A stretch of DNA of 64,000 bases from Candidatus Rariloculaceae bacterium (GCA_965204155.1 OZ241971.1:2560100-2624099), one strand, 5' to 3'; counted from the first letter of the stretch, positions 13,509-37,809 are shown. Translations and numbers: made by a program. The notes: generated from the sequence alone by a model not told the origin.

Positions 13509-13528
13509 TTTCGTATCCCTCGTGGTCG

Positions 13529-14213: not shown

Positions 14214-14299
14214 TGTTGCGCCTTCCGCGGTTATTCATATCAGACATGTTGGCGCCACTTTCCGCGCTCGTTCGTTTCAGACATGTTGGCGCCGCCCCT
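14206..14299 (-). repeat. Triplicated soxA-stop/soxG-start junction forming two chained mini-ORFs
   Basis: TCAGACATGTTGGCGCC occurs exactly at 14240..14256 and 14277..14293, with a 3-mismatch copy at 14206..14222. Mini-ORFs are 14240..14284 (MSETNERGKWRQHV) and 14206..14247 (MSDMNNRGRRNNV). Each junction is an ATGTCTGA start/stop overlap. Confidence 0.85.
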
Positions 14300-17200
14300 T
14301 GGGATCGTAGAAGGTCGGCGCAACGATTTGCACCGGCAGCGACTCGCGCTCCGGCAGCGCCGCGTAGACGGTTTCGCCCTTGCGCTTCCGCCCGCCGGCG
14401 ACCAGGGCCAGGGCGATCGGGTGGCCGAGGCAAGCGCTGCGGTAGCTGGAGGTGACGTGACCGCACATGGGTACGGGCGCCGGCTTGCCCGTTTCCTCGA
14501 TGAGCTGGGTTCCCTCGGGTAGTACCGTCCGATCGTCGGAAGACAGGAGACCGACCAACTGTTTGCGGTCTTCCCGCAGGCAATCCGGGCGCCGCAGGGA
14601 ACGCTTGCCGAGAAAGTCCTTCTCCTTCGACAGCAGCCAGTTCATGCCCAGGTCCACGGGCGTGACGGATCCGTCGGTGTCCTGGCCGACGATGATGAAG
14701 CCCTTTTCGGCGCGCAGCACGTGCATGGTTTCGGTCCCGTAGGGCGCGATATCGAATGCCCGGCCGGCCTCGATGACCCGCTCCCACATGGCCAGCGCGC
14801 GGTTGCTGTCGATGTTGATCTCGAACGCCAGTTCACCGGAGAAGCTCACCCGGAACAGGGTGACGCGCATGCCCGCCAGGACGGCGGGCCTGACGGTCAT
14901 GAACGGGAAACTCTCCTTGTCCAGCGGAATGTCGCAGCCGAGCGTTTCCAGCAACCTGCGGCTGTTGGGCCCGACCACTGCGATGGTCGAATAGTGTTCA
15001 GTCAGCGATGTCAGGTAGACCTCCAGCTCCGGCCACTCGGTCTGCAGCCAGCATTCCATCCAGCTCAGCACGTTCGCCGCACCGCCGGTGGTGGTGGTCA
15101 GGTAGAAACGCTGCTCGCCCAGGCGCGCCATCACGCCGTCGTCCATGAGCATGCCGTCCTCGCCCAGCATGATTCCGTAGGCGCAGCGCCCGACCTTCAT
15201 CCGGCCGACGTTGTGGGTGTAGATGCGTTCCAGGAACTCGACGACGTCGGGCCCGCGGGCGTCGATCTTGCCCAGGGTGGAGGCGTCCATCACGCCGACG
15301 GAGTTGCGTACCGCCAGGCATTCCCGCGCCACTGCCCCGTGCAAGTCCTCGCCGTCCCGCGGGAAGTACCATGGCCGGTGCCACTGGCTCACCACTTCCA
15401 TGGGTGCGCCGGCGGCCTCGTGCCACTCGTGGATCGCGGTCTTGCGCACGGGATCGTAGAGTTCGCCGACGCTTTCGCCAGCGCCGACCCCGAAACTCAC
15501 CGGCGTATAGGCCGGGCGGAACGTCGTCGTGCCCACCTCGGGAATGGTCTTGCCGAGTATGTCGGCCAGCACGGCCATGCCATTGATGTTGGCGAGTTTG
15601 CCCTGGTCGGTGCCGAAGCCCAGCGCCGTGTAGCGCTTGACGTGCTCGACGTTGCGATAGCCTTCGCGCACGGCAAGGCGGACGTCGGCGACGCTGGTGT
15701 CGTTCTGGAAGTCGATGAATTGCTTCGGGCAGCGATCCGCGTCCTTCGCCGCCGGTACGCGCCAAAGGGCCTCGATCGGGTTCTCCGCGACGCCGGACGT
15801 GATTGGCGGTTCGATGGCCGGGGGTCTCAGCCCGAGTTTCGACACCGCTACCGTGCCGGCCCGCACGCCGTCGGCCAGACACTCGCCGAGGGACTGCCTG
15901 CCGTTGCCCGCGCCGGCCGAATCGTGGGCCTGGCGTGCTTGCGCGGGGACGAAGCCGAGCTGCGCATCGTCCCAGGCCAACCGCCCGCCCGCCTGGGAGT
16001 GCAGGTGAACGGCCGGGCTCCAGCCTCCGGACACGGCCACCAGATCGCAGTCGATGCGGATCGAAGGGGTCACGCTTGCCCAACTGTCGCCGCTCCACCT
16101 GGCGATGCTGGCGCCCCTGACACGACTCCGGCCTAGCACATCGGTTATCACGTGTCCTGCCAATACCGGAATCCCCAAGTCTCGCACCCGGCCGCCGAGA
16201 TCCCCACCGCCGCCGGGGCGGCTGTCGACGATGGCGGCCACCTCCGCGCCGGCATCGGCCAGGCTCATCGCTGTTCGATAGGCGGAGTCGTTGTTGGTAA
16301 AGACCACCGCACGGCGGCCCGGCAGGACGGCATACCGTTGGATATAGGCCGAGACGGCCGACGCCTGCATCACGCCGGGCCGGTCGTTGTTGCAGAACAC
16401 CAGCGGCCGCTCGAAGCTGCCCTGGGCCAGCACCACCTGCCTGGCCCGCACGCGCCAGAGCCGCCCTGCCACGGTTTCGCCGCTCCCGCGCCCTGCCGCG
16501 GCGTCGCCGCGATCCTGGTGCGAATCCTCGGCGCCGGCGTGCGCAATGCCCACGTGGCTGGAACAGCGCTCCGCAATCGTCAGGAAGTTGTGGTCGTGGT
16601 AGCCGAACACGGTGCTGCGGGGCAGCAGGATGCAATCCGCGTGGTCACCAAGTTCAGCCACTACTCCGGCGGCCCACTCCGCGCCTGGCTTGCCGTCGAT
16701 GCTGTCGGTGCAAGCCAGCAGGCTGCCGCCAAACTCGTTCTGTTCGTCGGCGAGAATCACGCGGGCGCCGGACCTCGCCGCCGCCAGCGCCGCCATCAGG
16801 CCGGCCGGTCCGCCCCCGGCCACCAGCACTTCGCAGTGCGCGTTCATGTGCTCGTAGGTGCCGGGATCGGGCTCCTCCGGCGCCCGGCCGAAGCCGGCCG
16901 ACGCGCGGATCAGGCGCTCGTAGAGCTTCCACAACGAGCGCGGGTACATGAACGTCTTGTAGTAGAAACCGGCGGCCAGCATTCGTCCAAAGACGTCATT
17001 CATTGCACCGATATCCAAGCGCACCGTGGGCCAGCCCTTCGTCGAGCGCGCCACCAGCCCGTCGTGGAGTTCCACCTGCGTCGCCAGGAGGTTCGGCTGC
17101 GCGGCGGCGCCTTCGCCCACCTGCATGATCGCGTTGGGTTCTTCCGCGCCGCTGCCGACGATCCCGCGCGGGCGGCGCAACTTGAAGCTGCGCCCCACCA

Positions 17201-17345
17201 GGGACACGCCGTTGGCGATCAGCGCAGAAGCCAGCGTGTCGCCTGCGAATCCCTCGCAAGTCTTGCCGTTGAAGGAGAAGGACAAGGGCTGCGCCCGGTC
17301 GATCCGCCCTCCCTGCTGCAAACGATTCGGCTGCGCGACCGCCAT
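14277..17345 (-). CDS. soxA: Sarcosine oxidase alpha subunit
   Basis: Conserved N-terminus MAVAQPNRLQQGGRIDR…FNGKTCEGFAGDTLASALIANGV begins at Met52 of track ORF 14277..17498. About 1022 aa with a GcvT-like C-terminal domain. Confidence 0.9.
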   Translation of the reverse strand: MAVAQPNRLQQGGRIDRAQPLSFSFNGKTCEGFAGDTLASALIANGVSLVGRSFKLRRPRGIVGSGAEEPNAIMQVGEGAAAQPNLLATQVELHDGLVARSTKGWPTVRLDIGAMNDVFGRMLAAGFYYKTFMYPRSLWKLYERLIRASAGFGRAPEEPDPGTYEHMNAHCEVLVAGGGPAGLMAALAAARSGARVILADEQNEFGGSLLACTDSIDGKPGAEWAAGVVAELGDHADCILLPRSTVFGYHDHNFLTIAERCSSHVGIAHAGAEDSHQDRGDAAAGRGSGETVAGRLWRVRARQVVLAQGSFERPLVFCNNDRPGVMQASAVSAYIQRYAVLPGRRAVVFTNNDSAYRTAMSLADAGAEVAAIVDSRPGGGGDLGGRVRDLGIPVLAGHVITDVLGRSRVRGASIARWSGDSWASVTPSIRIDCDLVAVSGGWSPAVHLHSQAGGRLAWDDAQLGFVPAQARQAHDSAGAGNGRQSLGECLADGVRAGTVAVSKLGLRPPAIEPPITSGVAENPIEALWRVPAAKDADRCPKQFIDFQNDTSVADVRLAVREGYRNVEHVKRYTALGFGTDQGKLANINGMAVLADILGKTIPEVGTTTFRPAYTPVSFGVGAGESVGELYDPVRKTAIHEWHEAAGAPMEVVSQWHRPWYFPRDGEDLHGAVARECLAVRNSVGVMDASTLGKIDARGPDVVEFLERIYTHNVGRMKVGRCAYGIMLGEDGMLMDDGVMARLGEQRFYLTTTTGGAANVLSWMECWLQTEWPELEVYLTSLTEHYSTIAVVGPNSRRLLETLGCDIPLDKESFPFMTVRPAVLAGMRVTLFRVSFSGELAFEINIDSNRALAMWERVIEAGRAFDIAPYGTETMHVLRAEKGFIIVGQDTDGSVTPVDLGMNWLLSKEKDFLGKRSLRRPDCLREDRKQLVGLLSSDDRTVLPEGTQLIEETGKPAPVPMCGHVTSSYRSACLGHPIALALVAGGRKRKGETVYAALPERESLPVQIVAPTFYDPKGRRQHV

Positions 17346-17347
17346 GG

Positions 17348-17611
17348 TCAGCCACCGTCCAGCGTGTAACTGCGCTCGATGCGGTAGGTGACCGTATCGC
17401 GCTCCACGCCGAACCATCGCCGGCAGCCGTGGGCGTGATTCCACAATTCCCGGTGGGCGCCGCGCGGGTTGGCGCGGTTGAACAGGTAGTCGGCCCATTC
17501 CGCGTCGCTCAGCGCGTCCGGGTCCGGCGGCCGCACGATGCCCGCCTCACCACCGTAGCTGAACTCGGTCTCGGCCCGGGACCCGCACCATGGGCATTCG
17601 ATCAAAAGCAT
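17348..17611 (-). CDS. soxD: Sarcosine oxidase delta subunit
   Basis: 87 aa with the MLLIECPWCG…HGC zinc-site pattern characteristic of SoxD. Confidence 0.9.
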   Translation of the reverse strand: MLLIECPWCGSRAETEFSYGGEAGIVRPPDPDALSDAEWADYLFNRANPRGAHRELWNHAHGCRRWFGVERDTVTYRIERSYTLDGG

Positions 17612-17630
17612 GGCATTGAACCCGTGAGCG

Positions 17631-18881
17631 CTAGTGCGCCACCGCCGCGGCGCCGTGCTCGTCGATCAGCGCGCCTGTAGCAAACCGCTCCAGGCTGAAG
17701 GGCGCGTTGAGTTCGTGGGGTTCGTCGTGGGCCATGGTGTGCGCGAACACCCAGCCGGAGCCGGGTGTCGACTTGAAGCCGCCGGTGCCCCATCCGCAGT
17801 TGAAGTAAAGGCCCTGTACGGGCGTCTTCGAGACGATCGGACATGCATCCGGGCAGACATCGACGATGCCGCCCCAGAGCCTGAGCATGCGCACCCGGCT
17901 GAACACCGGGAACAGCTCGATGATCGCCTGCATCGTGTGTTCGATGATGTGGAAGCTGCCCCGCTGGCCGTAGCCGTTGTACGCGTCGATGCCGGCGCCG
18001 ATCACCAGTTCGCCCTTGTCGGACTGGCTGATGTAGCCGTGCACCGCCCCGGACATGACCACCGTGTCCAGCACCGGCTTGATGGGCTCGGAGACGAACG
18101 CCTGCAGCGGATGGCTCTCGATGGGCAGGCGCAGGTCCGCCATCCTGGCCAGCACGCTGGCGTGGCCGGCCACCACGACGCCGATGCGGTTCGAGGCGAT
18201 GGGGCCGCGCGTCGTCTGCACGCCCACGGCCCTGCCGCCCCGGACATCGATACCCGTGACCTCGCACTGTTCGATGATGTCGACGCCGAGCGCGTCGGCG
18301 GCCCGCGCGAAGCCCCAGGCGACGGCATCGTGACGCGCCACCCCCGCGCGGCGCTGCAGCGACGCGCCGAGGATCGGATAACGCGCATCCGGTGAAATAT
18401 TGAGGTGCGGAATCGCCTTGCCGAGTTCGGCCGCGCTGACGACCTCGGCGTCAATGCCGTTGAGCCGGTTGGCGTTGACGCGCCGCTCGATGTCCCGCAT
18501 GTCCTGCAGCGAGTGAGCCAGGTTGTAGACGCCGCGCTGGCTGAACATGACGTTGTAATTCAGATCCTGGCTCAGTCCCTCCCACAGCTTCATGGATTTC
18601 TCGTACAGCAGCGAGGATTCGGTCCACAGGTAGTTGGAGCGCACGATGGTGGTATTGCGCCCGGTGTTGCCCCCGCCGATCCAGCCCTTCTCCAGCACCG
18701 CGACGTTGCGGATGCCGTGATTCCTGGCCAGGTAGTAGGCGGTCGCAAGCCCGTGGCCGCCGCCGCCGACGATGATGGCGTCGTAGCTCTTCTCCGGTTC
18801 AGGACTGCGCCACGCCTCGCGCCAGTTCCTGTTGTAACTGAGCGCATTGCGCAGCAGCCCGAGCGCCGAGTATCGCTTCAT
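17631..18881 (-). CDS. soxB: Sarcosine oxidase beta subunit
   Basis: Starts at Met56 of the track ORF ([20 protein letters not shown]…[20 protein letters not shown]); 416 aa. Confidence 0.9.
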
Positions 18882-18930
18882 GATCTCATGCCCGGCCTGC
18901 TCCCGGCCTGCCGAAAACGCCAGGGGAGGC

Positions 18931-19024
18931 GCACTGCCGGTCGCTTGAGACCCTCGCCCGCAGGGATGCGGGCGCGGAGCGTACAGGGATGTATTCACAG
19001 CGTGTCTCAAGCGACCGGCAGTGC
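18931..19024. repeat. Perfect 21-bp inverted repeat with nested hairpin (intergenic, DMGDH1 / soxB)
   Basis: GCACTGCCGGTCGCTTGAGAC at 18931..18951 is the exact reverse complement of 19004..19024. Inner hairpin is CGCCCGCA-GGGA-TGCGGGCG (18955..18974). Confidence 0.9.
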
Positions 19025-19076
19025 GACTCCCCGACCCACCCACCACAGCAGCATAATCTTCGGTCAGACATGCGCC

Positions 19077-21533
19077 TCACCCATTGGCCCCATTGACATC
19101 GCGCAGCCGTTCATTGGCCGCATCGAACGGGCTGTCGGGAATCACCGTCGCCCGAAAGGTCCTGTCGAGAATCTCGATGCCGACCTCCGTGCCCGGAACC
19201 GCCAGGTCGGGAGGCAGCATCCCCAGCGCCAGCGACTTGCCGGTGCGGAAACCGTAGTTGCCGCTGGTGGCCCGGCCGACCGTCTCACCGTCCATGAGCA
19301 ACGCATTGTTGCCGAGCGCGTCGGCGTCTTCCACGTCGTGAACCTCCAGCGTGACCAGCAGGTTCTTCAGTCCGGCCTCCCTGGACGCCAGCAGGGCGTC
19401 GCGTCCCAGGAAGTCGCCCTTGTCCGGCCTGACGAACCGGTCCAGCGTCGACTCGAAGGCCGAGTACTCGATGGACAGTTCCGTGCCCACCAGCCGGTAG
19501 GACTTCTCCATGCGCATCGAGTCCATGGCGCGAATGCCGAACGGCGCCAGCCCCAGGTCCTCGCCGGCCTCGAACAACGTGTCGAAGATGTGGTTCTGGT
19601 ACTCCATGGGGTGGTGCAGTTCCCAGCCCAGTTCGCCGACGAAGTTCACCCGCATGGCGTTGACCGGCGCCGAGCCAACCACGATGTCGCGGGCGGTCAG
19701 CCAGCGGAAGGCCTGGTTCGACAGGTCGGCGCCCGTCACCCGCGACAACAGCTCCCTCGCCCTGGGGCCAGCCAGGACCAGCACGCCGACCGCGCCCGTC
19801 AGGGGCGTAAACTGCACCGAGCCGTCCTGCGGCATGTATTTGCGCAGATAGTCGTGATCCAGCCGCTGGAAGGCGCCGGCCGACACCAGGTAGAACGAAT
19901 CGCCCGGCTCGCGGCGGATCGTGAACTCCGAATGCACGCCGCCGCTACGGTTCAGCGCGTGTGCCAGACACATGCGCCCAACCTGCTTCGGCACGCTGTT
20001 GGCCACGAACCAGTTGAGGAAGTCTTCCGCTCCGGGGCCGGACACGCGGCACTTGGCGAACGCGGTCATGTCCTGCAGTCCGACGTTGTTCGTGACGTTT
20101 TCGACCTCACGGCGAACCGCCTCGAACCAGCGCGAGCGGCGGAACGACCAGTCGTCTTCCTGAGGCATGTTGTCAGTCGCAAAGAAATTGGGCCGCTCCC
20201 AGCCGAACTTCTGCCCGAATACGGCTCCACGCGCCTTCATGCGCTCGTAGCAGGGCGCTGTGCGCAACGGACGTGCGGCGGGGCGTTCCTCGTCCGGGTA
20301 GTGGATGATGAAGACGTGCGCGTAGGCTTCTTCGGTCTTTTTGACCAGGTAGTCCTTCGTCGCGTATTCGCCGAAACGGCGCGGCTCGACACCCAGCATG
20401 TCGATGGTGGGCTCCCCTTCGACGATCCACTCGGCCAGTTGCCAGCCGGCCCCGCCTGCGGCCGTGATCCCGAAGCTGTGCCCCTCGGACAGCCAGAAAT
20501 TGTCGATACCCCAGGCCGGCCCGATGATCGGGTTGCCGTCGGGCGTGTAGGCGATGGCGCCGTTGTAGACTTCCTTGATGCCTACTTCGGCGAAGGCCGG
20601 CACCCGGTTCATCGCTGCCTCGATATGCGGCATGAGGCGGTCGATGTCCTCCTGGAACAACTCGTATTCGGCCTGCGGGTCCGGGCCGTCGACGTAGCAG
20701 CAGGGCGCGTCCTTCTCGTACGGGCCGAGGATGAAGCCGCTGTTTTCCTCGCGCAGGTACCACGAGCCGTCCGATTCGCGCAGCACGCCGAGTTCGGGCA
20801 GGCCCTGGAGTTTGCGCGCCTGAAGATCGGGATGCGGTTCGGTGACGATGTACTGGTGCTCCACCGGCATCACGGGGACATCGAGTCCCACCATCTCGCC
20901 GGTCTGGCGGGCGTAATTCCCGGTGGCCGAGACCACGTGATCGCAGGTGATGCGGCCCTTGTCCGTGTGCACCACCCAGCCACCGGAGGTCGCCTGGGTG
21001 ATGCCGAGAACCGCGGTCTTGCGGTAGATCTCCGCACCGCGCCCCCGGGCGCCGGCGGCCAGCGCCTGGGTCAGGTCGGCGGGCTGGATGTAGCCGTCCT
21101 CGGGATGGAAGATGCCGCCGACGAGTCCGTCAGTATTGCACAGCGGCCACAGTTCTCCGATCTCGGCCGGGGTCAGGAAGCGTACATCCACCCCGATGGT
21201 CTTCGCCGTGGCCGCGTACTGGTGGTACTCATCCATACGGTCCCGGTTCATGGCGAGCCGCAGGTTGCCGACCCGGCTGAACCCGACCCGCCGTCCAGTC
21301 TCTTTCTCCAGCTCCTGATACAGGTTGACGGAGTACTTGTGGACCTGGCCCACCGAGTAGCTCATGTTGAACAGCGGCAGCAGGCCCGCGGCGTGCCAGG
21401 TGGAGCCCGAAGTCAGCTCGCCCTTCTCGACCAGCACCACCTCGTCCCCCCAGCCCTTCTTCGCCAGGTGATACAGCGTGCTGACGCCGACCACGCCGCC
21501 GCCGACGACCACGACTCTTGCCCGTGTTTTCAT
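19077..21533 (-). CDS. Dimethylglycine/sarcosine dehydrogenase-family flavoprotein (FAD domain + GcvT-like THF domain), paralogue 1
   Basis: 818 aa; VVVVGGGVVG dinucleotide fold; LTSGSTWHAAG (covalent-FAD His context); C-terminal aminomethyltransferase-like domain. ATGA overlap with the upstream gene. Confidence 0.85.
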   Translation of the reverse strand: MKTRARVVVVGGGVVGVSTLYHLAKKGWGDEVVLVEKGELTSGSTWHAAGLLPLFNMSYSVGQVHKYSVNLYQELEKETGRRVGFSRVGNLRLAMNRDRMDEYHQYAATAKTIGVDVRFLTPAEIGELWPLCNTDGLVGGIFHPEDGYIQPADLTQALAAGARGRGAEIYRKTAVLGITQATSGGWVVHTDKGRITCDHVVSATGNYARQTGEMVGLDVPVMPVEHQYIVTEPHPDLQARKLQGLPELGVLRESDGSWYLREENSGFILGPYEKDAPCCYVDGPDPQAEYELFQEDIDRLMPHIEAAMNRVPAFAEVGIKEVYNGAIAYTPDGNPIIGPAWGIDNFWLSEGHSFGITAAGGAGWQLAEWIVEGEPTIDMLGVEPRRFGEYATKDYLVKKTEEAYAHVFIIHYPDEERPAARPLRTAPCYERMKARGAVFGQKFGWERPNFFATDNMPQEDDWSFRRSRWFEAVRREVENVTNNVGLQDMTAFAKCRVSGPGAEDFLNWFVANSVPKQVGRMCLAHALNRSGGVHSEFTIRREPGDSFYLVSAGAFQRLDHDYLRKYMPQDGSVQFTPLTGAVGVLVLAGPRARELLSRVTGADLSNQAFRWLTARDIVVGSAPVNAMRVNFVGELGWELHHPMEYQNHIFDTLFEAGEDLGLAPFGIRAMDSMRMEKSYRLVGTELSIEYSAFESTLDRFVRPDKGDFLGRDALLASREAGLKNLLVTLEVHDVEDADALGNNALLMDGETVGRATSGNYGFRTGKSLALGMLPPDLAVPGTEVGIEILDRTFRATVIPDSPFDAANERLRDVNGANG

Positions 21534-23545
21534 CGTGCGGATGCTTTTCTTCTGCGCCGCCGCCGCCCGGCGCCGGCGGATTCCGGTCCCGGCGCCGGCT
21601 TTTCCACCACCGAGAACAGCCTTGGGAAGCTGTCTCGCTTGTTCGGGATCGCCATTGCGTCCACGAAATACTCCTGGAACTTCGGTTCCACCGCCGTTTC
21701 GATCTTCTCGATGGTGCGTACCGCGGCTTCGATTTCCGCGCGGGCAGGCAAGTTCAGCAACGCGATCAGCGCCCCCATGCCTGCTGCGTTTCCGGCCGAC
21801 TTTACCCGGTTGAGGTCGCAGTCGGGAATCAGCCCCAGGACCATCGCGTATTTCGGGTCGATGTGGGAACCGAACGCCCCGGCCAGGCGGATGCGGTCGA
21901 TCCTGTCGATGCCGGCCCGGTCCTGGAGCAAACGGACACCCGCGTACAGCGCCGCCTTGGCGAGTTGCACCTGGCGCACGTCGTTCTGCGTGACGACGAT
22001 CCGCTGCGGGCCATCATGCAAGAGGTACGAGAACGTGCGGCCGTCGGCGAGGATGCGTTCGCTCCGGCTCGCCAGTGAACCGTCGACGACCCCATCCTCG
22101 TTGATGATGCCGGCAAGGTACATCTCCGCGATGACCTCGATGATGCCGGACCCGCAGATGCCGGTGACGCCGAACGCCCCGGTCGCTGTGTCGAAATCCG
22201 GATCATCCGACCAAAGCTCCGATCCGATGACGCTATAGCGCGGCTCAAGGTCCACCGGATCGATGCGCACCCGCTCGATGGCGCCGGGAGTAGCGCGCTG
22301 ACCGCCGGAAATCTGCGCGCCCTCGAAGGCGGGTCCTGTGGGACTGGAGCAGGCCAGCAGCCGGTCGCGGTTGCCGAGCAGGATCTCCGCGTTGGTGCCC
22401 ACGTCCACCACCAAAGAAACCTCGTCGAGCAGGTGCGGTTCCTCGGCCAGGACCATTCCGGCCGCGTCGGCCCCCACGTGCCCGGCGATGCACGGCAGCA
22501 CGTAGACGTTGGCGCCCGGATGGATCCCGATGCCGATGTCGCGGGCCTTGAGGTCGAGCGCGGTATCGACCGCCAGGGCAAAGGGGGCGCCGCCGAGTTC
22601 ACGGGGGTCCAGGCCCAGGAACAGGTGGTGCATGATGGGATTGCCGACCACCGTCAGTTCCACAACGTCCTCGGGGCCGATACCGCCCTGGCGGCAAACC
22701 TGTCCGACGAGGTCGTTCACTCCCCCGCGAACGGCACTCGTCAGCTCTGCGGCGCCCTCCGGGTGCATCATCACGTAGGAAACCCGGCTCATCAGGTCCT
22801 CGCCGAAACGAATCTGCGGGTTCATGATGCCGTCAGTGGCGATCACGTTGCCCGCCGTCAGGTTCACCAGGTGGGCGGCGATCGTCGTCGAACCGATGTC
22901 GATCGCGATGCCGTGGACCCTGGGCCTGAAACCGGGCCAGACGGCGACAATGGTGGACTCATTGTGCACGGCCACGGTGACCCGCCACCCGCCCTCCCGC
23001 AGCGCGTGTTGCAGACCCGGCAGAATGACCGGGTCGCACAGCAGATCGGCAAGCTGCCACTCCCAGGCCAGCGCGTCGCAAAGCCGCTGCAGGTCGCCGG
23101 TGGTTTCGAGCATGTCGGCAGGCTGTACCTCCACGTGATAGAGCCGCGTGGCCGGGTCGAGCTTGATGTCGCGGTGCTCGGCATCCTTGCGCACGACCTG
23201 GCGGTGCATCTGGCTCTCCGGCGGCACGTCGATGACGAGATCGCCCCCGATCACCGCCTGGCAGCTCAGGCGGTGGTTGGCCGCAAGTTTCCGGCGGCGC
23301 TCGCTGTACCGCGCTTCGATTTCGTTGAGCCGCGATAGATGCTCCGGGCGGGAACGGATCGCGTGCTTGGCAAAATCTCCGTCCATGCAGACAATGCGGC
23401 AGCGCCCGCAAAGCCCGCGGCCGCCGCACACCGAGTCCACGTCGACACCGATGCTCCGGGCGGCGTCCAGCAGCCGCGTGCCGTGCGGAAACGTGCCGCG
23501 GCGCCCGGAGGGTGTAAAGACGATCCTGGCGTCCCCGTGAGTCAC
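21530..23545 (-). CDS. RACo-like corrinoid reductive activase (2Fe-2S ferredoxin + ASKHA/DUF4445 ATPase)
   Basis: N-terminal plant-type ferredoxin motif CGGRGLCGRCRI followed by a long ASKHA-like body. GTG 23545 is preferred (GGAG 8 nt upstream); alternative GTG at 23641 (track start). Confidence 0.78.
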   Translation of the reverse strand: MTHGDARIVFTPSGRRGTFPHGTRLLDAARSIGVDVDSVCGGRGLCGRCRIVCMDGDFAKHAIRSRPEHLSRLNEIEARYSERRRKLAANHRLSCQAVIGGDLVIDVPPESQMHRQVVRKDAEHRDIKLDPATRLYHVEVQPADMLETTGDLQRLCDALAWEWQLADLLCDPVILPGLQHALREGGWRVTVAVHNESTIVAVWPGFRPRVHGIAIDIGSTTIAAHLVNLTAGNVIATDGIMNPQIRFGEDLMSRVSYVMMHPEGAAELTSAVRGGVNDLVGQVCRQGGIGPEDVVELTVVGNPIMHHLFLGLDPRELGGAPFALAVDTALDLKARDIGIGIHPGANVYVLPCIAGHVGADAAGMVLAEEPHLLDEVSLVVDVGTNAEILLGNRDRLLACSSPTGPAFEGAQISGGQRATPGAIERVRIDPVDLEPRYSVIGSELWSDDPDFDTATGAFGVTGICGSGIIEVIAEMYLAGIINEDGVVDGSLASRSERILADGRTFSYLLHDGPQRIVVTQNDVRQVQLAKAALYAGVRLLQDRAGIDRIDRIRLAGAFGSHIDPKYAMVLGLIPDCDLNRVKSAGNAAGMGALIALLNLPARAEIEAAVRTIEKIETAVEPKFQEYFVDAMAIPNKRDSFPRLFSVVEKPAPGPESAGAGRRRRRRKASAR

Positions 23546-23644
23546 GCCGATTGCTCCGGTCCGGTCCGCGCCGCGGTTCGGTCCGCCGCAGTTTGCCGCG
23601 CCGGCGCGCGTTTCACGGCGTTGTCGCACGCGGTCCGGCACATG

Positions 23645-24559
23645 TCAGCACGCCGTCGCCCCGGCCCGCCGCCGGCGTCGCCGTCCGCCGCGTTCCCGCC
23701 GCGTTCCCGCGGCCGACGGCTGGCGGTACTTGCGGATCCAGTTGGCGCAGTCCGGGTCGTGCCCCATCATGACATCGGCGCCCAGCACGGCCTGAACGAC
23801 GTCGGCGTGCAGCGGATTCGTGATCGCCGAGGTCATGCCCGCGCCGATGGCCATGGTCAGGAACGCGGAATTGATGCCGTTGCGGTTCGGCAGCCCGAAG
23901 CTGACATTGGAGGCGCCGCAGGTCGTGTTGACTCTGAGTTCCCCGCGCAGCCGCCGCACGATGTGCATGACCTGCTTGCCCGCCGCGTTGATCGCGCCGA
24001 TGGGCATCACCAGCGGGTCGACCACCACATCCTCCCGGGTGATGCCGTGGTCGGCGGCGCGCTCGACGATCTTCTTCGCCACGGAGTAGCGCACGTCCGG
24101 GTCCTCGGAAATGCCGGTTTCGTCGTTGGAAATGGCGACCACCGCGGCGCCGTGCCGCTTCACCAGGGGCAGCACCGACTCGAGCCGCTCTTCCTCGCCG
24201 GTCACCGAGTTGACCAGCGCCTTGCCCTGGTACACCGCCAGTCCGGCTTCCAGGGCCGCGACGATGGACGAATCGATGGACAGCGGCACATCGGTGATCG
24301 ACTGCACGAGTTGGACAATGTCCGCCAGCATTTTCGGCTCGTCGGCCAGGGGCACGCCGGCATTGACATCGAGCATGTGCGCGCCGGCTTCGACCTGCGC
24401 GATGGCGTCGGCCTCCACCCGGCGGTAGTCGCCCCGCGCCATCTCCTCGGCGAGAACCTTGCGCCCGGTGGGATTGATGCGTTCGCCGATGACGACGAAC
24501 GGACGGTCGAATCCGATCCGCACTTCCCTGGTGGGCGAAGCAATGACTGTTTCGGTCAT
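23645..24559 (-). CDS. Methyltetrahydrofolate:corrinoid methyltransferase (pterin-binding, MtrH/AcsE-like)
   Basis: Starts at Met108 of the track ORF (MTETVIASPTREVRIGFDRPFVVIGERINPTGRK), the typical pterin-binding-barrel N-terminus. ATGA overlap with metF. Confidence 0.8.
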   Translation of the reverse strand: MTETVIASPTREVRIGFDRPFVVIGERINPTGRKVLAEEMARGDYRRVEADAIAQVEAGAHMLDVNAGVPLADEPKMLADIVQLVQSITDVPLSIDSSIVAALEAGLAVYQGKALVNSVTGEEERLESVLPLVKRHGAAVVAISNDETGISEDPDVRYSVAKKIVERAADHGITREDVVVDPLVMPIGAINAAGKQVMHIVRRLRGELRVNTTCGASNVSFGLPNRNGINSAFLTMAIGAGMTSAITNPLHADVVQAVLGADVMMGHDPDCANWIRKYRQPSAAGTRRERGGRRRRRRAGATAC

Positions 24560-25626
24560 GAGACTGCCTCCACTGCCCGCACGGTCCGCGCGCGGGACAC
24601 GTCGGGGTTGCCGCGATCCGACGCAATGTTCTTCCAGTCCATCGTCGGCCGCCACGGCCTGCGGCCGCCCAGCACATCGGAACGCTCGACGATTTCGGCG
24701 ACCCGGTGTTCCTGACGGTACGCCATGATGTGAATCCCGTGCACGCCCTGGATTTCCCTGATCCGATGGATCATGTCGATGCAGATGTTTACCCCCTCCC
24801 GTTGCTGGTTCTTCGCTCCCTGCAGGCGGTGGATGACGGCATCGGGAATGCGAATGCCGGGCACGTTGGTGCGAATCCATTCGGCCGAACGGGCCGAGGC
24901 GAGCGGGCCGACACCTGCCAGGATGAACACCTTCTCATGAGTCCCAGCGTCGCGCACCGCTGCCATGTAGCGCTCGAACATTTCCAGGTCGAAGCAGTAC
25001 TGTGTCTGCACGAACTGCGCGCCGGCCTCCACCTTCTTGGCCAGCCTGTGTGGCCGGTAGTCCAGCGGCGGGGCGAACGGGTTCGCGGCGGCGCCCAGGA
25101 ACACGCGCGGCGGCTCGGTCAGCCTGCGTCCGCTCAGGAACCTGGCTTCATCGCGCATGCTGCGGATCATGGTCAGCATGGACATGCTGTCCAGGTCGAA
25201 TACGGGTTTGGCCTCCGGGTGATCGCCGACATCGACGCCATCGCCCGTCAGGCAGAGGATGCTGGCGACCCCCATTGCCGCCGCGCCGAGCACGTCGCCC
25301 TGGATGGCGATCCGGTTGCGGTCCCGGGCCGACACCTGCATGACCATGGCGTAACCCCGCCGCGTCAGCAGCGAGCACATGCCCACGCTGGACATGTGGC
25401 AGTTGGCCCCCGAGCCGTCGGTGGCGTTGATGGCATCCACGTACCCGTCGTACAGCGCAGCGCGCTCGTAGACTTCGGCCGGGTTGGACGAGTCGGGCGG
25501 CGCGATCTCGGCGGTCACCGCAAAGCCGCCGGCGCGCAGCACGCGCTCGAACCGGCCGAACGAGGAATGCCCGGGCCGGATGGGCAGCGGATCGCCGGGT
25601 ACCAGCGGTTCGTCTTCAAACTGCAT
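24556..25626 (-). CDS. metF: Methylenetetrahydrofolate reductase, MetF type
   Basis: 356 aa with MTHFR TIM-barrel pattern (FAVTAEIAPPDS…VDAINATDGSGANCHMSS…). Confidence 0.85.
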   Translation of the reverse strand: MQFEDEPLVPGDPLPIRPGHSSFGRFERVLRAGGFAVTAEIAPPDSSNPAEVYERAALYDGYVDAINATDGSGANCHMSSVGMCSLLTRRGYAMVMQVSARDRNRIAIQGDVLGAAAMGVASILCLTGDGVDVGDHPEAKPVFDLDSMSMLTMIRSMRDEARFLSGRRLTEPPRVFLGAAANPFAPPLDYRPHRLAKKVEAGAQFVQTQYCFDLEMFERYMAAVRDAGTHEKVFILAGVGPLASARSAEWIRTNVPGIRIPDAVIHRLQGAKNQQREGVNICIDMIHRIREIQGVHGIHIMAYRQEHRVAEIVERSDVLGGRRPWRPTMDWKNIASDRGNPDVSRARTVRAVEAVS

Positions 25627-26116
25627 GTCTGCGGCTCTCGACCCGGATGCGAACCTCTCGCAGCCACGCCGACCGGCCGATCAACTGGTGGTCGACGGGC
25701 GGCTGCACGACCTGCAGCGGAAACTCTTCTTCGCGCAATCGCTGGTTGCCCTCCCACGCGAGCACCCAGACGCAGGGCATCTCCGGCTTCACCTCGCAGT
25801 TTCCGTCGGCGCGCACGCCGCCGCAGGGGCCGTTGCGCATCTCCTTCGGGCAGTTCATCGGGCAGGACAGTCCGGTGAAGCCGACGATGCACTGGCCGCA
25901 GTTCTGCGAATCCAGCAGGACGCCCTTGGTGAATGACTCGACTTTCATGAACGGCTTGTCGAGCCGCGCATAACCGATGCGCCGCAACAGCGGGTGGCAC
26001 CAGACAAGGATCTGCTCGATGGCGGCGTAGAGTCTCTTCAGGAAGCGCGCATTGCGCACCGACCAGTGCCGCATTCGGTACGTTTCAACGCGTTCCGTGG
26101 CTGATCCGGTGGCCAT
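25616..26116 (-). CDS. MTHFR C-terminal-domain / MetV-like Cys-rich small subunit
   Basis: 166 aa with Cys cluster CGQC…SCPMNCPKEMRNGPCGG…GNCEV. Overlaps the metF start by 11 nt. Confidence 0.75.
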   Translation of the reverse strand: MATGSATERVETYRMRHWSVRNARFLKRLYAAIEQILVWCHPLLRRIGYARLDKPFMKVESFTKGVLLDSQNCGQCIVGFTGLSCPMNCPKEMRNGPCGGVRADGNCEVKPEMPCVWVLAWEGNQRLREEEFPLQVVQPPVDHQLIGRSAWLREVRIRVESRRHAV

Positions 26117-26122
26117 GGGGTG

Positions 26123-26518
26123 CTAGGTCCCGTCGACGCTGTCCGTGCTGCCGCCGTCCGGGCCGCCGCTGTCCGGGCCGCCGCCTCCCGTGCTGCCGCC
26201 GTCCGGGCCGCCGCTGTCTGTGCTGGCGCCGTGACTGCGGATCAACAGTTTGAGCCGCTCCTGCGTAAATTCCTCTTCAAAGCGGCTCGCCTCGGCCAGC
26301 GCAAGCTCGCGCAGTTCGCCGGCGGAATCCATCATCGTGGTCTCGCGGCGCCATTCGGCGAGGTAGGCTGCGCTGCCGCCCTTGCCGGCACGCATGGCGG
26401 CCCGGTCGATGGCTTCCTGGAACCGGCCGCTCAGCAGGACCTTTTCGCGCCGCCGGCCACGCTGCAGGATGACCTGGGAGGGAATGTCACGCCAGTAAAC
26501 GAGAATTCTCTTGACCAT
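26123..26518 (-). CDS. Small 'virulence factor'-family protein of unknown function
   Basis: 131 aa; N-terminus MVKRILVYWRDIPSQV as I recall for this family, which co-occurs with MttB clusters. Gly/Ser/Asp/Pro-rich repeat tail. Confidence 0.55.
   Translation of the reverse strand: MVKRILVYWRDIPSQVILQRGRRREKVLLSGRFQEAIDRAAMRAGKGGSAAYLAEWRRETTMMDSAGELRELALAEASRFEEEFTQERLKLLIRSHGASTDSGGPDGGSTGGGGPDSGGPDGGSTDSVDGT
26144..26218 (-). repeat. In-frame 30-bp perfect direct repeat (period 45 bp) in the tail of the preceding CDS
   Basis: CGTGCTGCCGCCGTCCGGGCCGCCGCTGTC occurs at 26144..26173 and again at 26189..26218; it encodes the repeated DSGGPDGGST tail. Confidence 0.85.
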
Positions 26519-27116
26519 GGTCTGCTTTCCCGACCCGGGCCGCCAGGCTCAACTCAAGTTCGCCGTATCCGCAGTGCACGTGCTCGAAATCGAGTTCGAG
26601 GCATGCCGCGGCCCGCATGGCGGATTCGAGCAGCCGCGCGTCTTCCGTCTGCGAGAGGTATACGAGCTTGCGGTAGTTGCCAAAATACGCATCGCGCAGT
26701 TCCGGATGCCGGTCCAGTCCCAGCGGCTTCATCACGAAACGGTCGAAGTGGCGCGCCAGGAAGTCGGTCAGGTAGAACGTGCCGGGCTCCGCCGCGGACA
26801 GCGCGGCGAAGCGTTCGCGCCCGGCGAAGAACTGGTAGCAGTGCGCGCCTTCCAGCCGCTCGGCGCCTTCCTCCGCAAGCACGCGGTCGATGCCGCCGGT
26901 CGTGCCGCAGTCCGCGTACGCGACGAAAATCTCGCCGTACGCGGCTCGATGCCTGCGAATCATCTGCCGCAGGCGCCCGGGAATCTCCGCCGGGCGGTTG
27001 TGCAACCGCGCGTCGATGCACTTCAGGTGCAGGTGCTGCCAGCCCCAGCGGCGTTTGAGCGCGTCGATCTCCCGTGCCAGGGCGCCGCAGGCGATGACCA
27101 GGATCGGCTCAGGCAT
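26487..27116 (-). CDS. DUF1638-family protein
   Basis: 209 aa; pattern ILVIACGALAREI…LHNRPAEIP…YADCGTTGGID as recalled for DUF1638. Overlaps both neighbouring genes. Confidence 0.6.
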   Translation of the reverse strand: MPEPILVIACGALAREIDALKRRWGWQHLHLKCIDARLHNRPAEIPGRLRQMIRRHRAAYGEIFVAYADCGTTGGIDRVLAEEGAERLEGAHCYQFFAGRERFAALSAAEPGTFYLTDFLARHFDRFVMKPLGLDRHPELRDAYFGNYRKLVYLSQTEDARLLESAMRAAACLELDFEHVHCGYGELELSLAARVGKADHGQENSRLLA

Positions 27117-27834
27117 TGACGATCTCTCCCAGGCGGCGCGTCCGCACCATGTTCGGCGCCACGTCCGCGGCCTGCGCCGCGTCCCGGCAATAGCCGTCCG
27201 CCCCTACGGCACGGCCGAACTCCTCGTTGAGCGGCGCACCGCCCACCAGCACGATGTAGTCGTCGCGGATGCGTTGCTTGACCATCTCGTCGATGACCAC
27301 CTTCATGTAGGGCATGGTGGTGGTGAGCAGGGCGGACATGCCGAGGATGTCCGGCCGGTGCTTCTCCATCGCCTCGAAATAGTCTTCCACCGAGTTGTTG
27401 ATGCCGATGTCGAAGACTTCGAAGCCCGCGCCTTCCAGCATCATCCCCACCAGGTTCTTGCCGATGTCGTGGATGTCGCCCTTCACGGTGCCGATGACCA
27501 TCTTGCCGATGGGCTTGACGCCGGTCTCGGAGAGCAGCGGTCGCAGGATCTCCATGCCGCCCTTCATGGCGTTGGCCGCCAGCAGCACCTCGGGCACGAA
27601 CAGGATGCCGTCGCGGAAGTCGATGCCGACGATCCGCATGCCTTCCACCAGCGCCTCGTTGAGCACCTTCTCCGCGCCCCATTTGCGCTCGAGCAGGATG
27701 GACGTGCCCTCGACGATCTCCTCCCTGAGCCCGTCGTAGAGGTCTTCGTGCATCTGCTCCACGAGTTCGCCGTCGTCCAGTTCCGCCAGGACGATGTCTT
27801 CCTCTTCCAGGATGGCTGCGTGTTCCATGGCCAT
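27109..27834 (-). CDS. Cobalamin-binding corrinoid protein (B12-binding_2 helical cap + Rossmann B12 domain)
   Basis: Last 241 codons (MAMEHAAILEEED…) of track ORF 27109..29664. DxHxxG lower-ligand motif GDIHDIGKN, plus MSALLTTT and GGAP motifs. Confidence 0.85.
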   Translation of the reverse strand: MAMEHAAILEEEDIVLAELDDGELVEQMHEDLYDGLREEIVEGTSILLERKWGAEKVLNEALVEGMRIVGIDFRDGILFVPEVLLAANAMKGGMEILRPLLSETGVKPIGKMVIGTVKGDIHDIGKNLVGMMLEGAGFEVFDIGINNSVEDYFEAMEKHRPDILGMSALLTTTMPYMKVVIDEMVKQRIRDDYIVLVGGAPLNEEFGRAVGADGYCRDAAQAADVAPNMVRTRRLGEIVNA

Positions 27835-29414
27835 CAGTAGTCCCGATCCTCGAACTCCGACTTGCGCCGGTCGATGAAGGCGAGGAGTTCCTCGTGGATG
27901 GCGGGGTCGAGCTTCGGCGGCTCGTAGTCCTTCAACATCTGTTTCCAGATGCCGTTGGCGCGCTGGGCGGCGTCCAGCGAGCCGTCCTGCTGCCACTGTT
28001 CGAAGCTGTTGTTGTCCGCGACGGTGGAACGGTAGAAGGCGGTTTCGAAGTTCTCCAGGGTGTGCGCGGCGCCGAGAAAGTGCGAACCGGGTCCCACCTC
28101 GCGCAAAGCGTCCAGCGCCTGGGCGTTCTCCGACAGGTCGACGCCCCGCAAAAGCACCGCGATCATGTTCGCCTGGTCCACGTCCAGGATGAACTTCTCG
28201 TAGCCCATCGCCAGGCCTCCTTCCAGCCAGCCGGCGGTGTGCAGCATGAAGTTCACGCCGGCCATCGCCGCCGTCTGCAGCGTATTGGCGGACTCGTAGG
28301 CCGCCTGGGCGTCGGGAAGCTTCGCCGCGCAAAGCCCGCCGCCGCTGCGGAAGGGTACGCCCAGGCGCCGCGCCAATTGGCCCACGCCGTAGAGCACCAG
28401 GCTGGGCTCCGGGGTGCCGAAGGTCGGCGCCCCCGATTGCATGGATACGGCCGCGGCGAACGAACCGAACACCACCGGGGCGCCGGGGTGCACGAGCTGG
28501 ATATAGGCCATGCCGGCCAGCGCCTCGGCGAGGATCTGGGTCAGCGTGCCGGCCACGGTCACCGGCGACATCGCGCCTGCGAGCAGGAACGGCGAAATGA
28601 TCGTCGCCTGGTTGTTCTCGGCGTAGACCGTCGCCGCCCCCAGCATGGTGGCGTCGAAGGTGAGCGGCGAATTCACGTTGATGAGGCTGGTCAGTACCGT
28701 CTTGAGGGGCACGAAGTCTTCGCCGAACAGCAGCTTGACCATGGCGACGGTATCTTCGGCGCGCTCGGGATGGGTGACCGAACCCATGAACGGCTTGTCC
28801 GTGTACCTGATGTGGCTGTAGACCATGTCGAAGTGGCGCTTGTTGACGGGAAGATCGACGGGTTCGCAGACGGTGCCGCCGGAGTGGTGCAGCCCGGGGC
28901 TCATGTAGGTGAGCTTCACGAAGTTGCGGAAGTCCTCGATGGTCGCGTAGCGGCGCCCCCGGTCGAGGTCGTGCACGAACGGCGATCCATAGGCGGGCAC
29001 CAGCACGGTGCGGTCGCCGCCGATGATCGTGGAGCGCTTCGGATTGCGCGCGTGCTGCGTGTACTCGCGCGGCGCCGTGGCCTGCACCAGCGACCGGCAC
29101 AGTCCGCGCGGGAACCGCACGCGCTCCCCGTCCACGTCCGCCCCGGCCTCCTTCCAGAGCTTCAGCGCCCGCGGGAACCCGCGGAACTCGATGCCGATCT
29201 CCTCGAGCACGGTGTCCGCGTTGTGCTCGATCAGCTCCAGCGCTTCGGTATCGAGGATCTCGATGTGGGGGATCCGGCGATCGATCCAGGTGGTGAACTC
29301 GTCCACGATTCCGCGCCGGCGCAGGTCGTGCTTGTGCGCGCGGCCGGCCCGCAGCGGGCGGCCCGCGCGGGTCCGTCGGCCGGGGGCGCGCTTGCGTCGC
29401 AGATTGTCGGTCAT
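27834..29414 (-). CDS. MttB-superfamily methyltransferase, non-pyrrolysine (quaternary amine:corrinoid methyltransferase candidate), paralogue 1
   Basis: Starts at Met47 of the track ORF (MTDNLRRKRAPGRR…) with GGAGG 7 nt upstream. 526 aa, uninterrupted frame with no in-frame TAG. Arg-rich N-terminus is typical of proteobacterial MttB homologues. Confidence 0.85.
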   Translation of the reverse strand: MTDNLRRKRAPGRRTRAGRPLRAGRAHKHDLRRRGIVDEFTTWIDRRIPHIEILDTEALELIEHNADTVLEEIGIEFRGFPRALKLWKEAGADVDGERVRFPRGLCRSLVQATAPREYTQHARNPKRSTIIGGDRTVLVPAYGSPFVHDLDRGRRYATIEDFRNFVKLTYMSPGLHHSGGTVCEPVDLPVNKRHFDMVYSHIRYTDKPFMGSVTHPERAEDTVAMVKLLFGEDFVPLKTVLTSLINVNSPLTFDATMLGAATVYAENNQATIISPFLLAGAMSPVTVAGTLTQILAEALAGMAYIQLVHPGAPVVFGSFAAAVSMQSGAPTFGTPEPSLVLYGVGQLARRLGVPFRSGGGLCAAKLPDAQAAYESANTLQTAAMAGVNFMLHTAGWLEGGLAMGYEKFILDVDQANMIAVLLRGVDLSENAQALDALREVGPGSHFLGAAHTLENFETAFYRSTVADNNSFEQWQQDGSLDAAQRANGIWKQMLKDYEPPKLDPAIHEELLAFIDRRKSEFEDRDY

Positions 29415-29572
29415 GCGCGGCCTCCTGCTGCGGGATAACGGCTGAGCCCTGAAAGCGAAAGCCAGAGTTGTGCATTCGCAGTCTGAGCCAGAATCCCCAC
29501 TTCTGCATCGCCGGATGCGACATGGAGCCAATCGCAGGCGACATTGCGGCACCCGGGGCTATTGTTGGCGAC

Positions 29573-34422: not shown

Positions 34423-34456
34423 GCAGTAACGCCCGGGATTCATTCGTGGAGCTGGC

Positions 34457-37617: not shown

Positions 37618-37809
37618 GGCAGCCCTCCCTGGAGAAACGACGTTGAGAAGACATTGTGGCGGAGCACACGAACCGAAAGACACGAAAAGCATAGCTTATA
37701 CGATGCCATAGCGGCTAGCGGAGTCTTCTGCGAACGCAAGTCCTGAATCTGGTCAATTCGTGTAGTTTCCGTTCTGACGGTGCGCAAAACCGCATGCTAC
37801 GATGCCCGC

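Follow-up and report, generated by a model that had tools for sequence, protein, structure and literature searches.

A nine-gene cluster predicted to serve corrinoid-dependent glycine betaine demethylation in a Candidatus Rariloculaceae bacterium

The window analysed here is a stretch of 64,000 nucleotides from a Candidatus Rariloculaceae bacterium (GCA_965204155.1 OZ241971.1:2560100-2624099), and positions 19077-29414 of its minus strand hold nine open reading frames (ORFs) lying head to tail. In 5' to 3' order these encode an MttB-family methyltransferase (MttB1), a corrinoid protein, a DUF1638 protein, a PF13769 protein, a MetV-like and a MetF-type component of methylenetetrahydrofolate reductase (MTHFR), a pterin-binding methyltransferase (MtgD), a corrinoid reductive activase (RACo) and a dimethylglycine dehydrogenase (DMGDH) (Table 1). 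This organization had been proposed in an earlier annotation made from the DNA alone (the sequence-only reading) and was borne out by a script check of frames, start and stop codons and junctions, which found all nine ORFs in frame and with zero internal stops. The G+C content of the window is ~65%, at which long spurious ORFs are common; the nine ORFs nevertheless show a high GC3. Profile-HMM analysis of each ORF matched every named Pfam family far above its gathering score, and the motifs pointed out earlier, GDIHDIGKN in the corrinoid protein, CGGRGLCGRC in the activase and the Cys cluster of MetV, were all found.

Seven of the eight junctions are overlaps or gaps of no more than 6 nt. The stop codon of mttB (27836-27834) and the start codon of the corrinoid gene (ATG, 27834-27832) overlap by 1 nt in a TGATG; the sequence-only reading had placed the shared base 27834 correctly, and had named the motif ATGA. 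The next junctions comprise an 8-nt overlap between the corrinoid and DUF1638 genes (27109/27116), a 32-nt overlap between those of DUF1638 and PF13769 (26487/26518), a 6-nt gap before metV (26123/26116), an 11-nt overlap of metV and metF (25616/25626) and 4-nt ATGA overlaps at the metF/mtgD (24556/24559) and RACo/DMGDH (21530/21533) borders. The distance between mtgD and the RACo gene is 3 nt if translation of the latter begins at GTG 23641 (703 aa) and 99 nt if it begins at GTG 23545 (671 aa), an alternative already described, like the remaining junctions, in the sequence-only reading. As RACo aligned over its full length with PDB 3ZYY (331 bits) from residue 6 of the 671-aa form onwards, and as its relatives are 670-674 aa long, the predicted shorter form starting at GTG 23545 is favoured.

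The last gene product matched human and rat DMGDH from end to end (5L46, 617 bits, residues 2-800; 4PAB, 611 bits), and this flavoprotein is thus predicted to act on dimethylglycine (DMG). It is followed on the same strand by soxBDAG, in which SoxB scored above the TIGR01373 cut-off, as the sequence-only reading had stated in linking the module to a flavin demethylase and then to sarcosine oxidase. MtgD reached 367 bits with NF005719 (cut-off 259) and matched the structures 4O0Q, 2YCI and 1F6Y with 136-155 bits, resembling both MeTr and the D. hafniense MT2 proteins. RACo scored below the AcsV and RamA equivalog cut-offs and therefore belongs to a distinct subfamily. The nearest NCBIfam model of MetF was the MTHFR half of PRK08645 (211 bits), and MetV carries seven Cys residues (C73, C76, C85, C89, C98, C107 and C115) that were invariant in 78 homologues. 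The MetFV-type methylene-tetrahydrofolate (methylene-THF) reductases of acetogens consist of a MetF of the PRK08645 type and a small, Cys-rich PF12225 MetV. The same arrangement, a PF02219 MetF adjoining a small Cys-rich PF12225 subunit, was found here, whereas the pair is in this case predicted to run oxidatively in an aerobe.

The corrinoid protein carries its GDIHDIGKN sequence as a His-on DxHxxG motif, with H122 invariant in its relatives, and its best match among solved structures was 1Y80 (188 bits). The best NCBIfam matches were MtgC models, below their cut-offs, which is consistent with the distinct MtgC clade of Mausz et al. (2025, PMC12478193). It is 72% identical to the cobalamin-binding protein of the Sinorhizobium meliloti MtgBCDE cluster, and amino-acid identities across 92 loci were 70-92%. 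The corrinoid gene is also the most conserved part of the locus, with ~78-82% nucleotide identity to alphaproteobacterial replicons of Paracoccus, Shinella, Aminobacter and Sinorhizobium; its conservation suggests either a strong multi-partner constraint or lateral transfer. An origin of the locus from a plasmid was rejected, the plasmid collection giving only partial matches of 76-82% identity.

MttB1 matched PF06253 of Pfam with 754 bits, residues 23-521 covering profile positions 3-499 of 500 and hence the full-length TIM-barrel domain. The ORF has zero in-frame TAG codons, as the sequence-only reading had stated, and ends in TGA. With the pyrrolysine (Pyl)-type model TIGR02369 it scored 265 bits (cut-off 525) and with the Pyl-MttB structure 7XCL only 134 bits, and a Pyl-type trimethylamine (TMA) methyltransferase was on these grounds rejected as its identity. 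Considerably higher scores were obtained with MtgB of Desulfitobacterium hafniense (DhMtgB; 2QNE/9YCE, 438 bits) and with 4YYC (745 bits). The latter, titled 'putative trimethylamine methyltransferase' and with no substrate established, has the same aligned sequence as the S. meliloti MttB gene product, which is 68% identical to MttB1. An Arg-rich N-terminal extension of ~45 residues (window 29280-29414, minus strand; MTDNLRRKRAPGRRTRAGRPLRAGRAHKHDLRRRG...) is common to MttB1 and the S. meliloti 4YYC protein and absent in D. hafniense MtgB.

Mutagenesis and a structure with bound ligand have shown that Y97, R312, H348 and F356 of DhMtgB bind glycine betaine (GB) (Picking et al., 2026, PMC13080624). 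Mapped by alignment and allowing for the offset of 16 in the numbering of 2QNE, these residues correspond to Y142, R356, H392 and G400 of MttB1. The equivalents of the carboxylate-binding R312 and H348, R356 and H392, are kept and were invariant in 85 clade members, and Y142, G400 and W396 were likewise invariant in all 85 examined. The aromatic cation-pi pair of Y97 and F356 is thus represented by Y142 only, F356 being replaced by G400. W396, an Ile in DhMtgB, lies four residues before this Gly and is a candidate replacement for F356. Judged from the alignment, MttB1 is an enzyme with a putative carboxylate clamp and one aromatic residue retained, and with the second aromatic lost or relocated. 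Conservation of Y97 favours GB as the substrate without proving it, as this residue is reported not to be conserved in the enzymes for carnitine, proline betaine, butyrobetaine and phosphocholine or in MtcB, MtpB, MthB and MtyB (PMC13080624).

Besides soxBDAG, the same 36 kb as the operon hold genes for a BCCT transporter, an electron transfer flavoprotein (ETF), a formate-THF ligase and a GbdR-like regulator, and the setting of the operon is a putative glycine betaine catabolic island. The same machinery might instead serve an MttB1 acting on proline betaine, carnitine, gamma-butyrobetaine, choline or TMA, GB being handled otherwise. Such a substrate would fit with the Gly at the position of F356, with the retention of R312, and often of H348, in MttB paralogues that have other substrates (PMC13080624), with the presence in the island of a second MttB and three DMGDH-family enzymes, and with 4YYC having been matched only under its trimethylamine title. 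We nevertheless regard it as unlikely, because the Y97 equivalent is invariant here, because GB demethylation yields DMG, on which the translationally coupled DMGDH acts and from which the path leads on to sarcosine oxidase, because the island encodes a GbdR-like regulator and a BCCT transporter, and because MttB1 is nearer to MtgB than to the TMA-specific MttB in the bit scores given above. From the genomic context and the active-site residues we infer, with reasonable confidence, that the substrate of MttB1 is GB.

The nearest MttB proteins (80-97% identical) are encoded in metagenome assemblies that bear the labels Woeseiaceae, 'Candidatus Rariloculus' or Gammaproteobacteria. On one Woeseiaceae contig the nine genes stood in the very same order, with soxB and soxD next. 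To describe the wider distribution, 80 MttB-anchored loci, with one genome per species, were mapped by tblastn with the window proteins. MtgD and RACo lay within 10 kb at 45 of the 80 loci, PF13769 was present in 42 of these 45, and the full seven-gene core was complete at 24 loci. DMGDH-family genes occurred at 35 of the 80, Sox genes at 22 and GlxA-type regulators at 30. In a second scan anchored on PF13769 and covering metagenome contigs with PF13769 proteins 42-73% identical, DUF1638 was encoded directly upstream of PF13769 in 56 of 65 loci, and MetV (32) or MtgD (19) directly downstream in 51 of 61. Many genomes thus contain a cassette of the order Corr-DUF1638-PF13769-(MetV-MetF)-MtgD-RACo, accompanied by MttB, DMGDH, Sox and GlxA genes. 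The same gene set is present in S. meliloti and Paracoccus aminovorans, and the S. meliloti record additionally annotates bmt and, upstream of the MTHFR_C gene, a 'virulence factor' gene whose product is 45% identical to the PF13769 protein; in P. aminovorans PF13769 was found neither in the PLSDB gene table nor by tblastn. The operon arrangement is not due to chance, since dozens of independent genomes and metagenome contigs show the same cassette.

Two 'Ca. Rariloculus' contigs, L001 and L002 (~13400-17150), differed in carrying a 61-aa ORF in place of the MetV-MetF pair and an HD-domain gene between those of RACo and DMGDH; reshuffling of the island is therefore under way within the lineage. 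Immediately upstream, both contigs carry a second MttB, ETF and two DMGDH paralogues.

Matches to promoter and terminator consensus sequences within the operon did not exceed the level in shuffled sequences; the internal promoter scan used a sigma-70-type consensus, a weak tool at 65% G+C. The weakness of such scans would leave room for the tight packing to reflect genomic compaction only, with several internal promoters and no single functional unit, as would the rearrangements in other lineages, in which MttB is convergent and DMGDH upstream or absent. Compaction of this kind is highly improbable as the explanation, given that overlaps or very short gaps make up all but one of the junctions, that the exact nine-gene order was found in L006, L007 and L045 of the MttB-anchored scan and also in L004, and that the order and strand of the seven-gene core are kept across relatives in which PF13769 is no more than 42-73% identical to the protein described here. 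The nine genes are hence predicted to constitute one catabolic transcription unit.

Two of the nine genes encode proposed accessory proteins. In the DUF1638 protein, C10, H39, C70, H92 and C93 were invariant and C33 was 94% conserved among 105 homologues, down to 36% identity, and these Cys and His residues suggest a metal or Fe-S site. Its AF2 model (pLDDT 83.7) gave just generic alpha/beta Rossmann- or flavodoxin-like matches in Foldseek, with TM ~0.3, CbiX being listed at rank 45 and not significant. A DUF1638 orthologue is needed for the split methionine synthase of Phaeobacter inhibens, in which mutants in the DUF1638 and RamA-like genes are methionine auxotrophs; no mechanism for DUF1638 was proposed (Price et al., 2018, PMC5764234). 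The PF13769 protein belongs to a family of ~1000 clusters, almost all standalone and of ~100 aa, in a profile search of 1.84 billion representatives, which disclosed no informative domain fusion. Its AF2 model (pLDDT 72.6) had no Foldseek match at E<=0.001, and searches against the sequences of solved structures returned nothing significant for DUF1638, PF13769 or MetV. The low-complexity C-terminal tail of the protein (window 26123-26230, minus strand; SGGPDGGSTGGGGPDSGGPDGGST...) varies in length among relatives 83-85% identical (P0122, P0128) and is absent from most of the ~100-aa homologues. The accession PF13769 was not found in the literature searched. By its distribution the PF13769 gene is an almost obligatory member of the cassette, a membership that appears to be new.

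The nine genes probably form a unit by which an aerobic gammaproteobacterium removes the first two methyl groups of GB. GB could enter by the BCCT transporter as a candidate route and would be bound in the TIM-barrel pocket of MttB1, one N-methyl group being transferred to the Co(I) form of the corrinoid protein and DMG released. MtgD would pass the methyl group from methyl-Co(III) to THF, and MetF/MetV, operating in reverse, would oxidize methyl-THF to methylene-THF. Adventitiously oxidized Co(II) would be re-reduced to Co(I) by the RACo/RamA-like ATPase with its 2Fe-2S domain, alongside which DUF1638 and PF13769 may act as accessory factors. DMGDH would convert DMG to sarcosine, delivering electrons to ETF and the one-carbon (C1) unit to THF as methylene-THF, and SoxBDAG would use O2 to convert sarcosine to glycine, the methyl group again reaching methylene-THF. 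Formate-THF ligase would connect the route to C1 oxidation, and the probable inducer would be the GbdR-like regulator, through a conserved direct repeat that lies upstream of mttB. The parts and steps of a quaternary-amine-to-THF demethylation module, as conceived in the sequence-only reading, are thus supported by homology and conserved synteny. The additional statement that its substrate, its physiology in a respiring host and the embedded genes had not been described was out of date (Price et al., 2018, PMC5764234; Mausz et al., 2025, PMC12478193).

Several points weigh against the assignment to GB demethylation and to a single transcript. We know of no biochemical or genetic assay of any member of the proteobacterial MttB clade. 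Co-transcription is deduced from sequence, and the 195-nt spacer with a hairpin behind the DMGDH gene leaves the 3' end of the transcript open. With its second MttB and two extra DMGDH paralogues, the island evidently processes more than a single methylated amine. Of the GB-binding residues the fourth, F356, is replaced by Gly across the whole clade, so that the pocket differs, and an F356L exchange raised the Km of DhMtgB several hundred-fold; the DhMtgB residues by themselves would also admit proline betaine (PMC13080624). In Ruegeria pomeroyi, moreover, the MtgB candidates rest on proteomics only (PMC12478193).

The last-named organism offers the closest parallel. A system of MtgB/C/D, RamA, DUF1638 and MetF2 was described in aerobic R. 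pomeroyi DSS-3, where mtgC and mtgD knockouts lose growth on GB and where two PF06253 proteins (the MtgB candidates), RamA, DUF1638 and MetF2, the last being the most induced protein, are induced on N-osmolytes (Mausz et al., 2025, PMC12478193). The same article found that the determinants of GB demethylation, of cobalamin reactivation, of C1 oxidation and of the later demethylations often lie together in other marine Alpha-, Gamma- and Deltaproteobacteria, sometimes as operons and usually without mtgE (PMC12478193). The parts list at the present locus is the same, with a PF06253 MtgB, separate MtgC and MtgD, a RamA-like activase, DUF1638 and MetF2, both hosts are aerobes, and the S. meliloti cluster named by Mausz et al. 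is the one whose corrinoid and MttB proteins are 72% and 68% identical to those studied here. By contrast, the R. pomeroyi genes are scattered, whereas here they form one apparently translationally coupled operon that includes DMGDH; and the R. pomeroyi system includes mtgE, whereas neither mtgE nor another homocysteine methyltransferase of family PF02574 was found among the window ORFs scanned. On this comparison the locus is a further example of the aerobic B12-dependent GB demethylation system first described in 2025. The article by Mausz et al. contains no mention of PF13769 or of a Woeseiaceae-like lineage, nor was a MetV-like partner found mentioned in the sections consulted, and the conserved seven-Cys MetV partner appears to be new. 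The F356-to-Gly/Ile-to-Trp difference and the predicted GbdR-type operator are likewise not covered by that article (PMC12478193) or by Price et al. (PMC5764234).

A different purpose could be envisaged for the corrinoid/MtgD/RACo/DUF1638 core, namely that it mainly constitutes a split cobalamin-dependent methionine synthase, carrying methyl groups from methyl-THF via cobalt to homocysteine with an MtgE encoded elsewhere, the link with MttB being secondary. The same core proteins are indispensable for the synthesis of methionine in P. inhibens and R. pomeroyi (PMC5764234, PMC12478193), and MtgD has been proposed to be bidirectional (PMC12478193). We think it very unlikely that this is the main function here: the core is translationally coupled to an MttB methyl donor enzyme, to the MetF2/MetV pair and to DMGDH, PF02574 was lacking among the scanned ORFs, and mtgE is usually not co-located with the catabolic genes (PMC12478193). 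A dual role is possible, yet would not be the reason for the operon.

The B12-dependent GB route was previously known from anaerobes, MtgABC of D. hafniense and Methanolobus vulcani transferring methyl groups from GB via a corrinoid protein to THF or CoM (Ticak, 2014; Picking et al., 2026, PMC13080624). In common with these systems, the locus encodes a non-Pyl, MttB-family TIM-barrel enzyme (438 bits to DhMtgB) in which all but one of the four GB-binding residues are conserved, and it would likewise rely on a cognate corrinoid protein, on a methylcorrinoid:THF methyltransferase and on reactivation of the RamA/RACo type. The present locus differs in the Gly at the position of F356, the invariant Trp nearby, the ~45-aa Arg-rich extension and the corrinoid protein below the MtgC cut-offs, as well as in its aerobic host and in its linkage to DMGDH/Sox/ETF instead of acetogenic, sulfidogenic or methanogenic pathways. 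Hdr, Mvh and RnfC2 partner genes for the MetFV-type reductase were found neither in the operon nor among the ORFs scanned. In Eubacterium limosum several MttB paralogues (MtpB, MtcB, MtyB, MthB and others) share one corrinoid protein, and the two MttB paralogues of the window likewise seem to rely on a common corrinoid protein, MT2 and activase; the E. limosum systems, however, belong to an anaerobic acetogen and feed the Wood-Ljungdahl pathway. With the GbdR/CdhR control of Pseudomonas aeruginosa the locus has in common a GbdR-like regulator, a direct repeat of 21-bp period and DMGDH/Sox/ETF genes, whereas the first GB demethylation in Pseudomonas is performed by the oxygenase GbcAB and not by a corrinoid system (PMC12478193).

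Table 1. Coordinates of the operon genes, the neighbouring genes and the predicted non-coding elements in the window
Feature	Position	Strand	Basis or remark
Non-pyrrolysine MttB-family methyltransferase (MttB1), MtgB-like, proposed glycine betaine:corrinoid methyltransferase, 526 aa	27834..29414	-	PF06253
Corrinoid (cobalamin-binding) protein, MtgC-like, 241 aa	27109..27834	-	PF02310 + PF02607
DUF1638 protein, proposed accessory factor of corrinoid reactivation or maintenance, 209 aa	26487..27116	-	PF07796, 96.7 bits
PF13769 ('Virulence_fact') small basic protein with low-complexity tail, 131 aa	26123..26518	-	PF13769, 73.4 bits
MetV-like small MTHFR subunit (MTHFR C-terminal family), 166 aa	25616..26116	-	PF12225, 85.6 bits
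MetF-type methylenetetrahydrofolate reductase, MetF2-like, 356 aa; proposed methyl-THF to methylene-THF	24556..25626	-	PF02219, 121 bits
Pterin-binding methylcorrinoid:THF methyltransferase (MtgD/MtgA/MeTr-like), 304 aa	23645..24559	-	PF00809, 104 bits
RACo/RamA-like ATP-dependent corrinoid reductive activase, N-terminal 2Fe-2S domain	21530..23641	-	Fer2, RACo_linker, Raco_middle, RACo_C_ter
Dimethylglycine dehydrogenase (FAD, THF-dependent, ETF-linked), 818 aa	19077..21533	-	DAO, FAO_M, GCV_T, GCV_T_C
195-nt dmgdh-soxB spacer with stem-loop of ~30 bp	18882..19076	-	Folding
soxB	17631-18881	-	TIGR01373, 729 bits, above cut-off
soxD	17348-17611	-	Pfam
soxA	14277-about 17300, start uncertain	-	SoxA-type Pfam domains
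soxG	13605-about 14230, start uncertain	-	Pfam
Predicted operator, direct repeat ATGTCGC-N14-ATGTCGC, 21-bp period	29517..29544	-	~100-130 nt upstream of mttB ATG
TonB-dependent receptor	29723-32320	+	Pfam; divergent from mttB
TPR-sulfotransferase	32224-34422	+	Pfam
BCCT transporter	34430-36040	+	Pfam
Second non-pyrrolysine MttB paralogue (MttB2), 539-aa reading frame	36076..37695	-	PF06253, 372 bits
Two further DMGDH/SardH-family flavoproteins	38374-40863, 40905-43403	+	DAO, FAO_M, GCV_T, GCV_T_C; no equivalog assignment
Formate-THF ligase	44996-46675	-	Pfam
ETF alpha/beta, stop-to-stop frames	46753-47811, 47700-48491	-	Pfam
GbdR-like AraC/GlxA-family regulator	48769..49797	-	DJ-1_PfpI + HTH_18

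The soxBDAG genes (13605..18881, minus strand) encode a heterotetrameric sarcosine oxidase and follow DMGDH in the same order in relatives. The 195-nt spacer between dmgdh and soxB contains a perfect 22-nt inverted repeat (18930-18951 and 19004-19025), followed by GUUUUC and present as one copy in the window, and folds with an energy of -111.9 kcal/mol (z-score -5.3). In relatives the spacer is only 59-72 nt long and lacks this element, and the hairpin may be an attenuator, a terminator, an mRNA-stabilising element or a REP/MITE-like insertion. The sequence-only reading had let the operon end in a DMGDH-family flavoprotein; the identity of DMGDH stood, and the end of the transcript at this gene is uncertain, with soxBDAG continuing on the same strand. 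Downstream of soxG lies a gene (11560-12711, minus strand) for a TauD/TfdA-family Fe(II)/2-oxoglutarate dioxygenase with no NCBIfam assignment, an enzyme which might act on another betaine or amine.

On the other side, the best NCBIfam match of the BCCT transporter was 'glycine betaine uptake BCCT' (479 bits, below the cut-off of 650), and the GbdR-like regulator scored 438.5 bits with the NCBIfam GbdR model (cut-off 480). The trio of TonB-dependent receptor, TPR-sulfotransferase and BCCT genes also adjoins mttB in other loci of the Woeseiaceae type (L004, L006-L008, L011, L012, L015, L026 and L034). MttB2 is 26% identical to MttB1, has none of the four GB-binding residues and no corrinoid protein of its own nearby, and is predicted to use a different substrate from MttB1. 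An Rfam match to PYLIS_3 lies inside its gene (36480-36579, minus strand; 40.4 bits, gathering score 38). It was rejected as a Pyl insertion signal and attributed to coding-sequence homology, since the ORF has no internal TAG, TAG being the terminal stop only, and since the match occupies a roughly homologous gene position. PYLIS_3 was the only Rfam match in the window, and no cobalamin riboswitch was detected, including before the TonB-dependent receptor gene.

The direct repeat upstream of mttB lies in the 308-bp intergenic region between mttB and the TonB-dependent receptor gene, has a third, inverted copy at 29635-29641 and recurs at the corresponding place in five related genomes; nowhere else in the window do three copies of the 7-mer ATGTCGC cluster. 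CdhR, GbdR, SouR and ArgR recognize half-sites of the form GGTCGC-N15-GGTCGC (PMC5806209). The architecture of the repeat is the same as that of the CdhR/GbdR half-sites, and it is by analogy predicted to be a GbdR/CdhR-type operator. In the whole window ATGTCGC/GCGACAT occurs in 28 copies as against ~7.7 in mononucleotide shuffles, probably for the most part as a codon-usage effect; single copies lie near the starts of the formate-THF ligase gene (46663) and of the GbdR-like gene (49801). Conservation of the 7-mer was checked for the cluster between mttB and the receptor gene only.

Glycine betaine ranks among the most abundant osmolytes and nitrogen-rich substrates in the sea and in host tissues, and only in 2025 did it become clear how its first methyl group is removed by aerobes without GbcAB or Bhmt. 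The locus analysed here represents an unusually complete single-operon version of the B12-dependent route, in a Woeseiaceae-like lineage from sediment and sponge-associated metagenomes. It may serve as a clean template by which the pathway, and hence a requirement for B12, can be annotated in metagenomes. Its main interest lies in the clean operon architecture and in the two conserved accessory proteins, PF13769 and DUF1638. These may act as an adaptor or chaperone between RACo and the corrinoid protein, or may shield Co(II)/Co(I) or serve it as an electron relay, and we put forward, tentatively and with more doubt than conviction, that they may be dedicated, hitherto unrecognised subunits which enable Co(I) corrinoid methyl transfer in O2-respiring cells. 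If this is true, these subunits and an oxidative MetF/MetV would together define an 'aerobic' module of corrinoid demethylation that stands apart from the anaerobic MtgABC/RamA paradigm.

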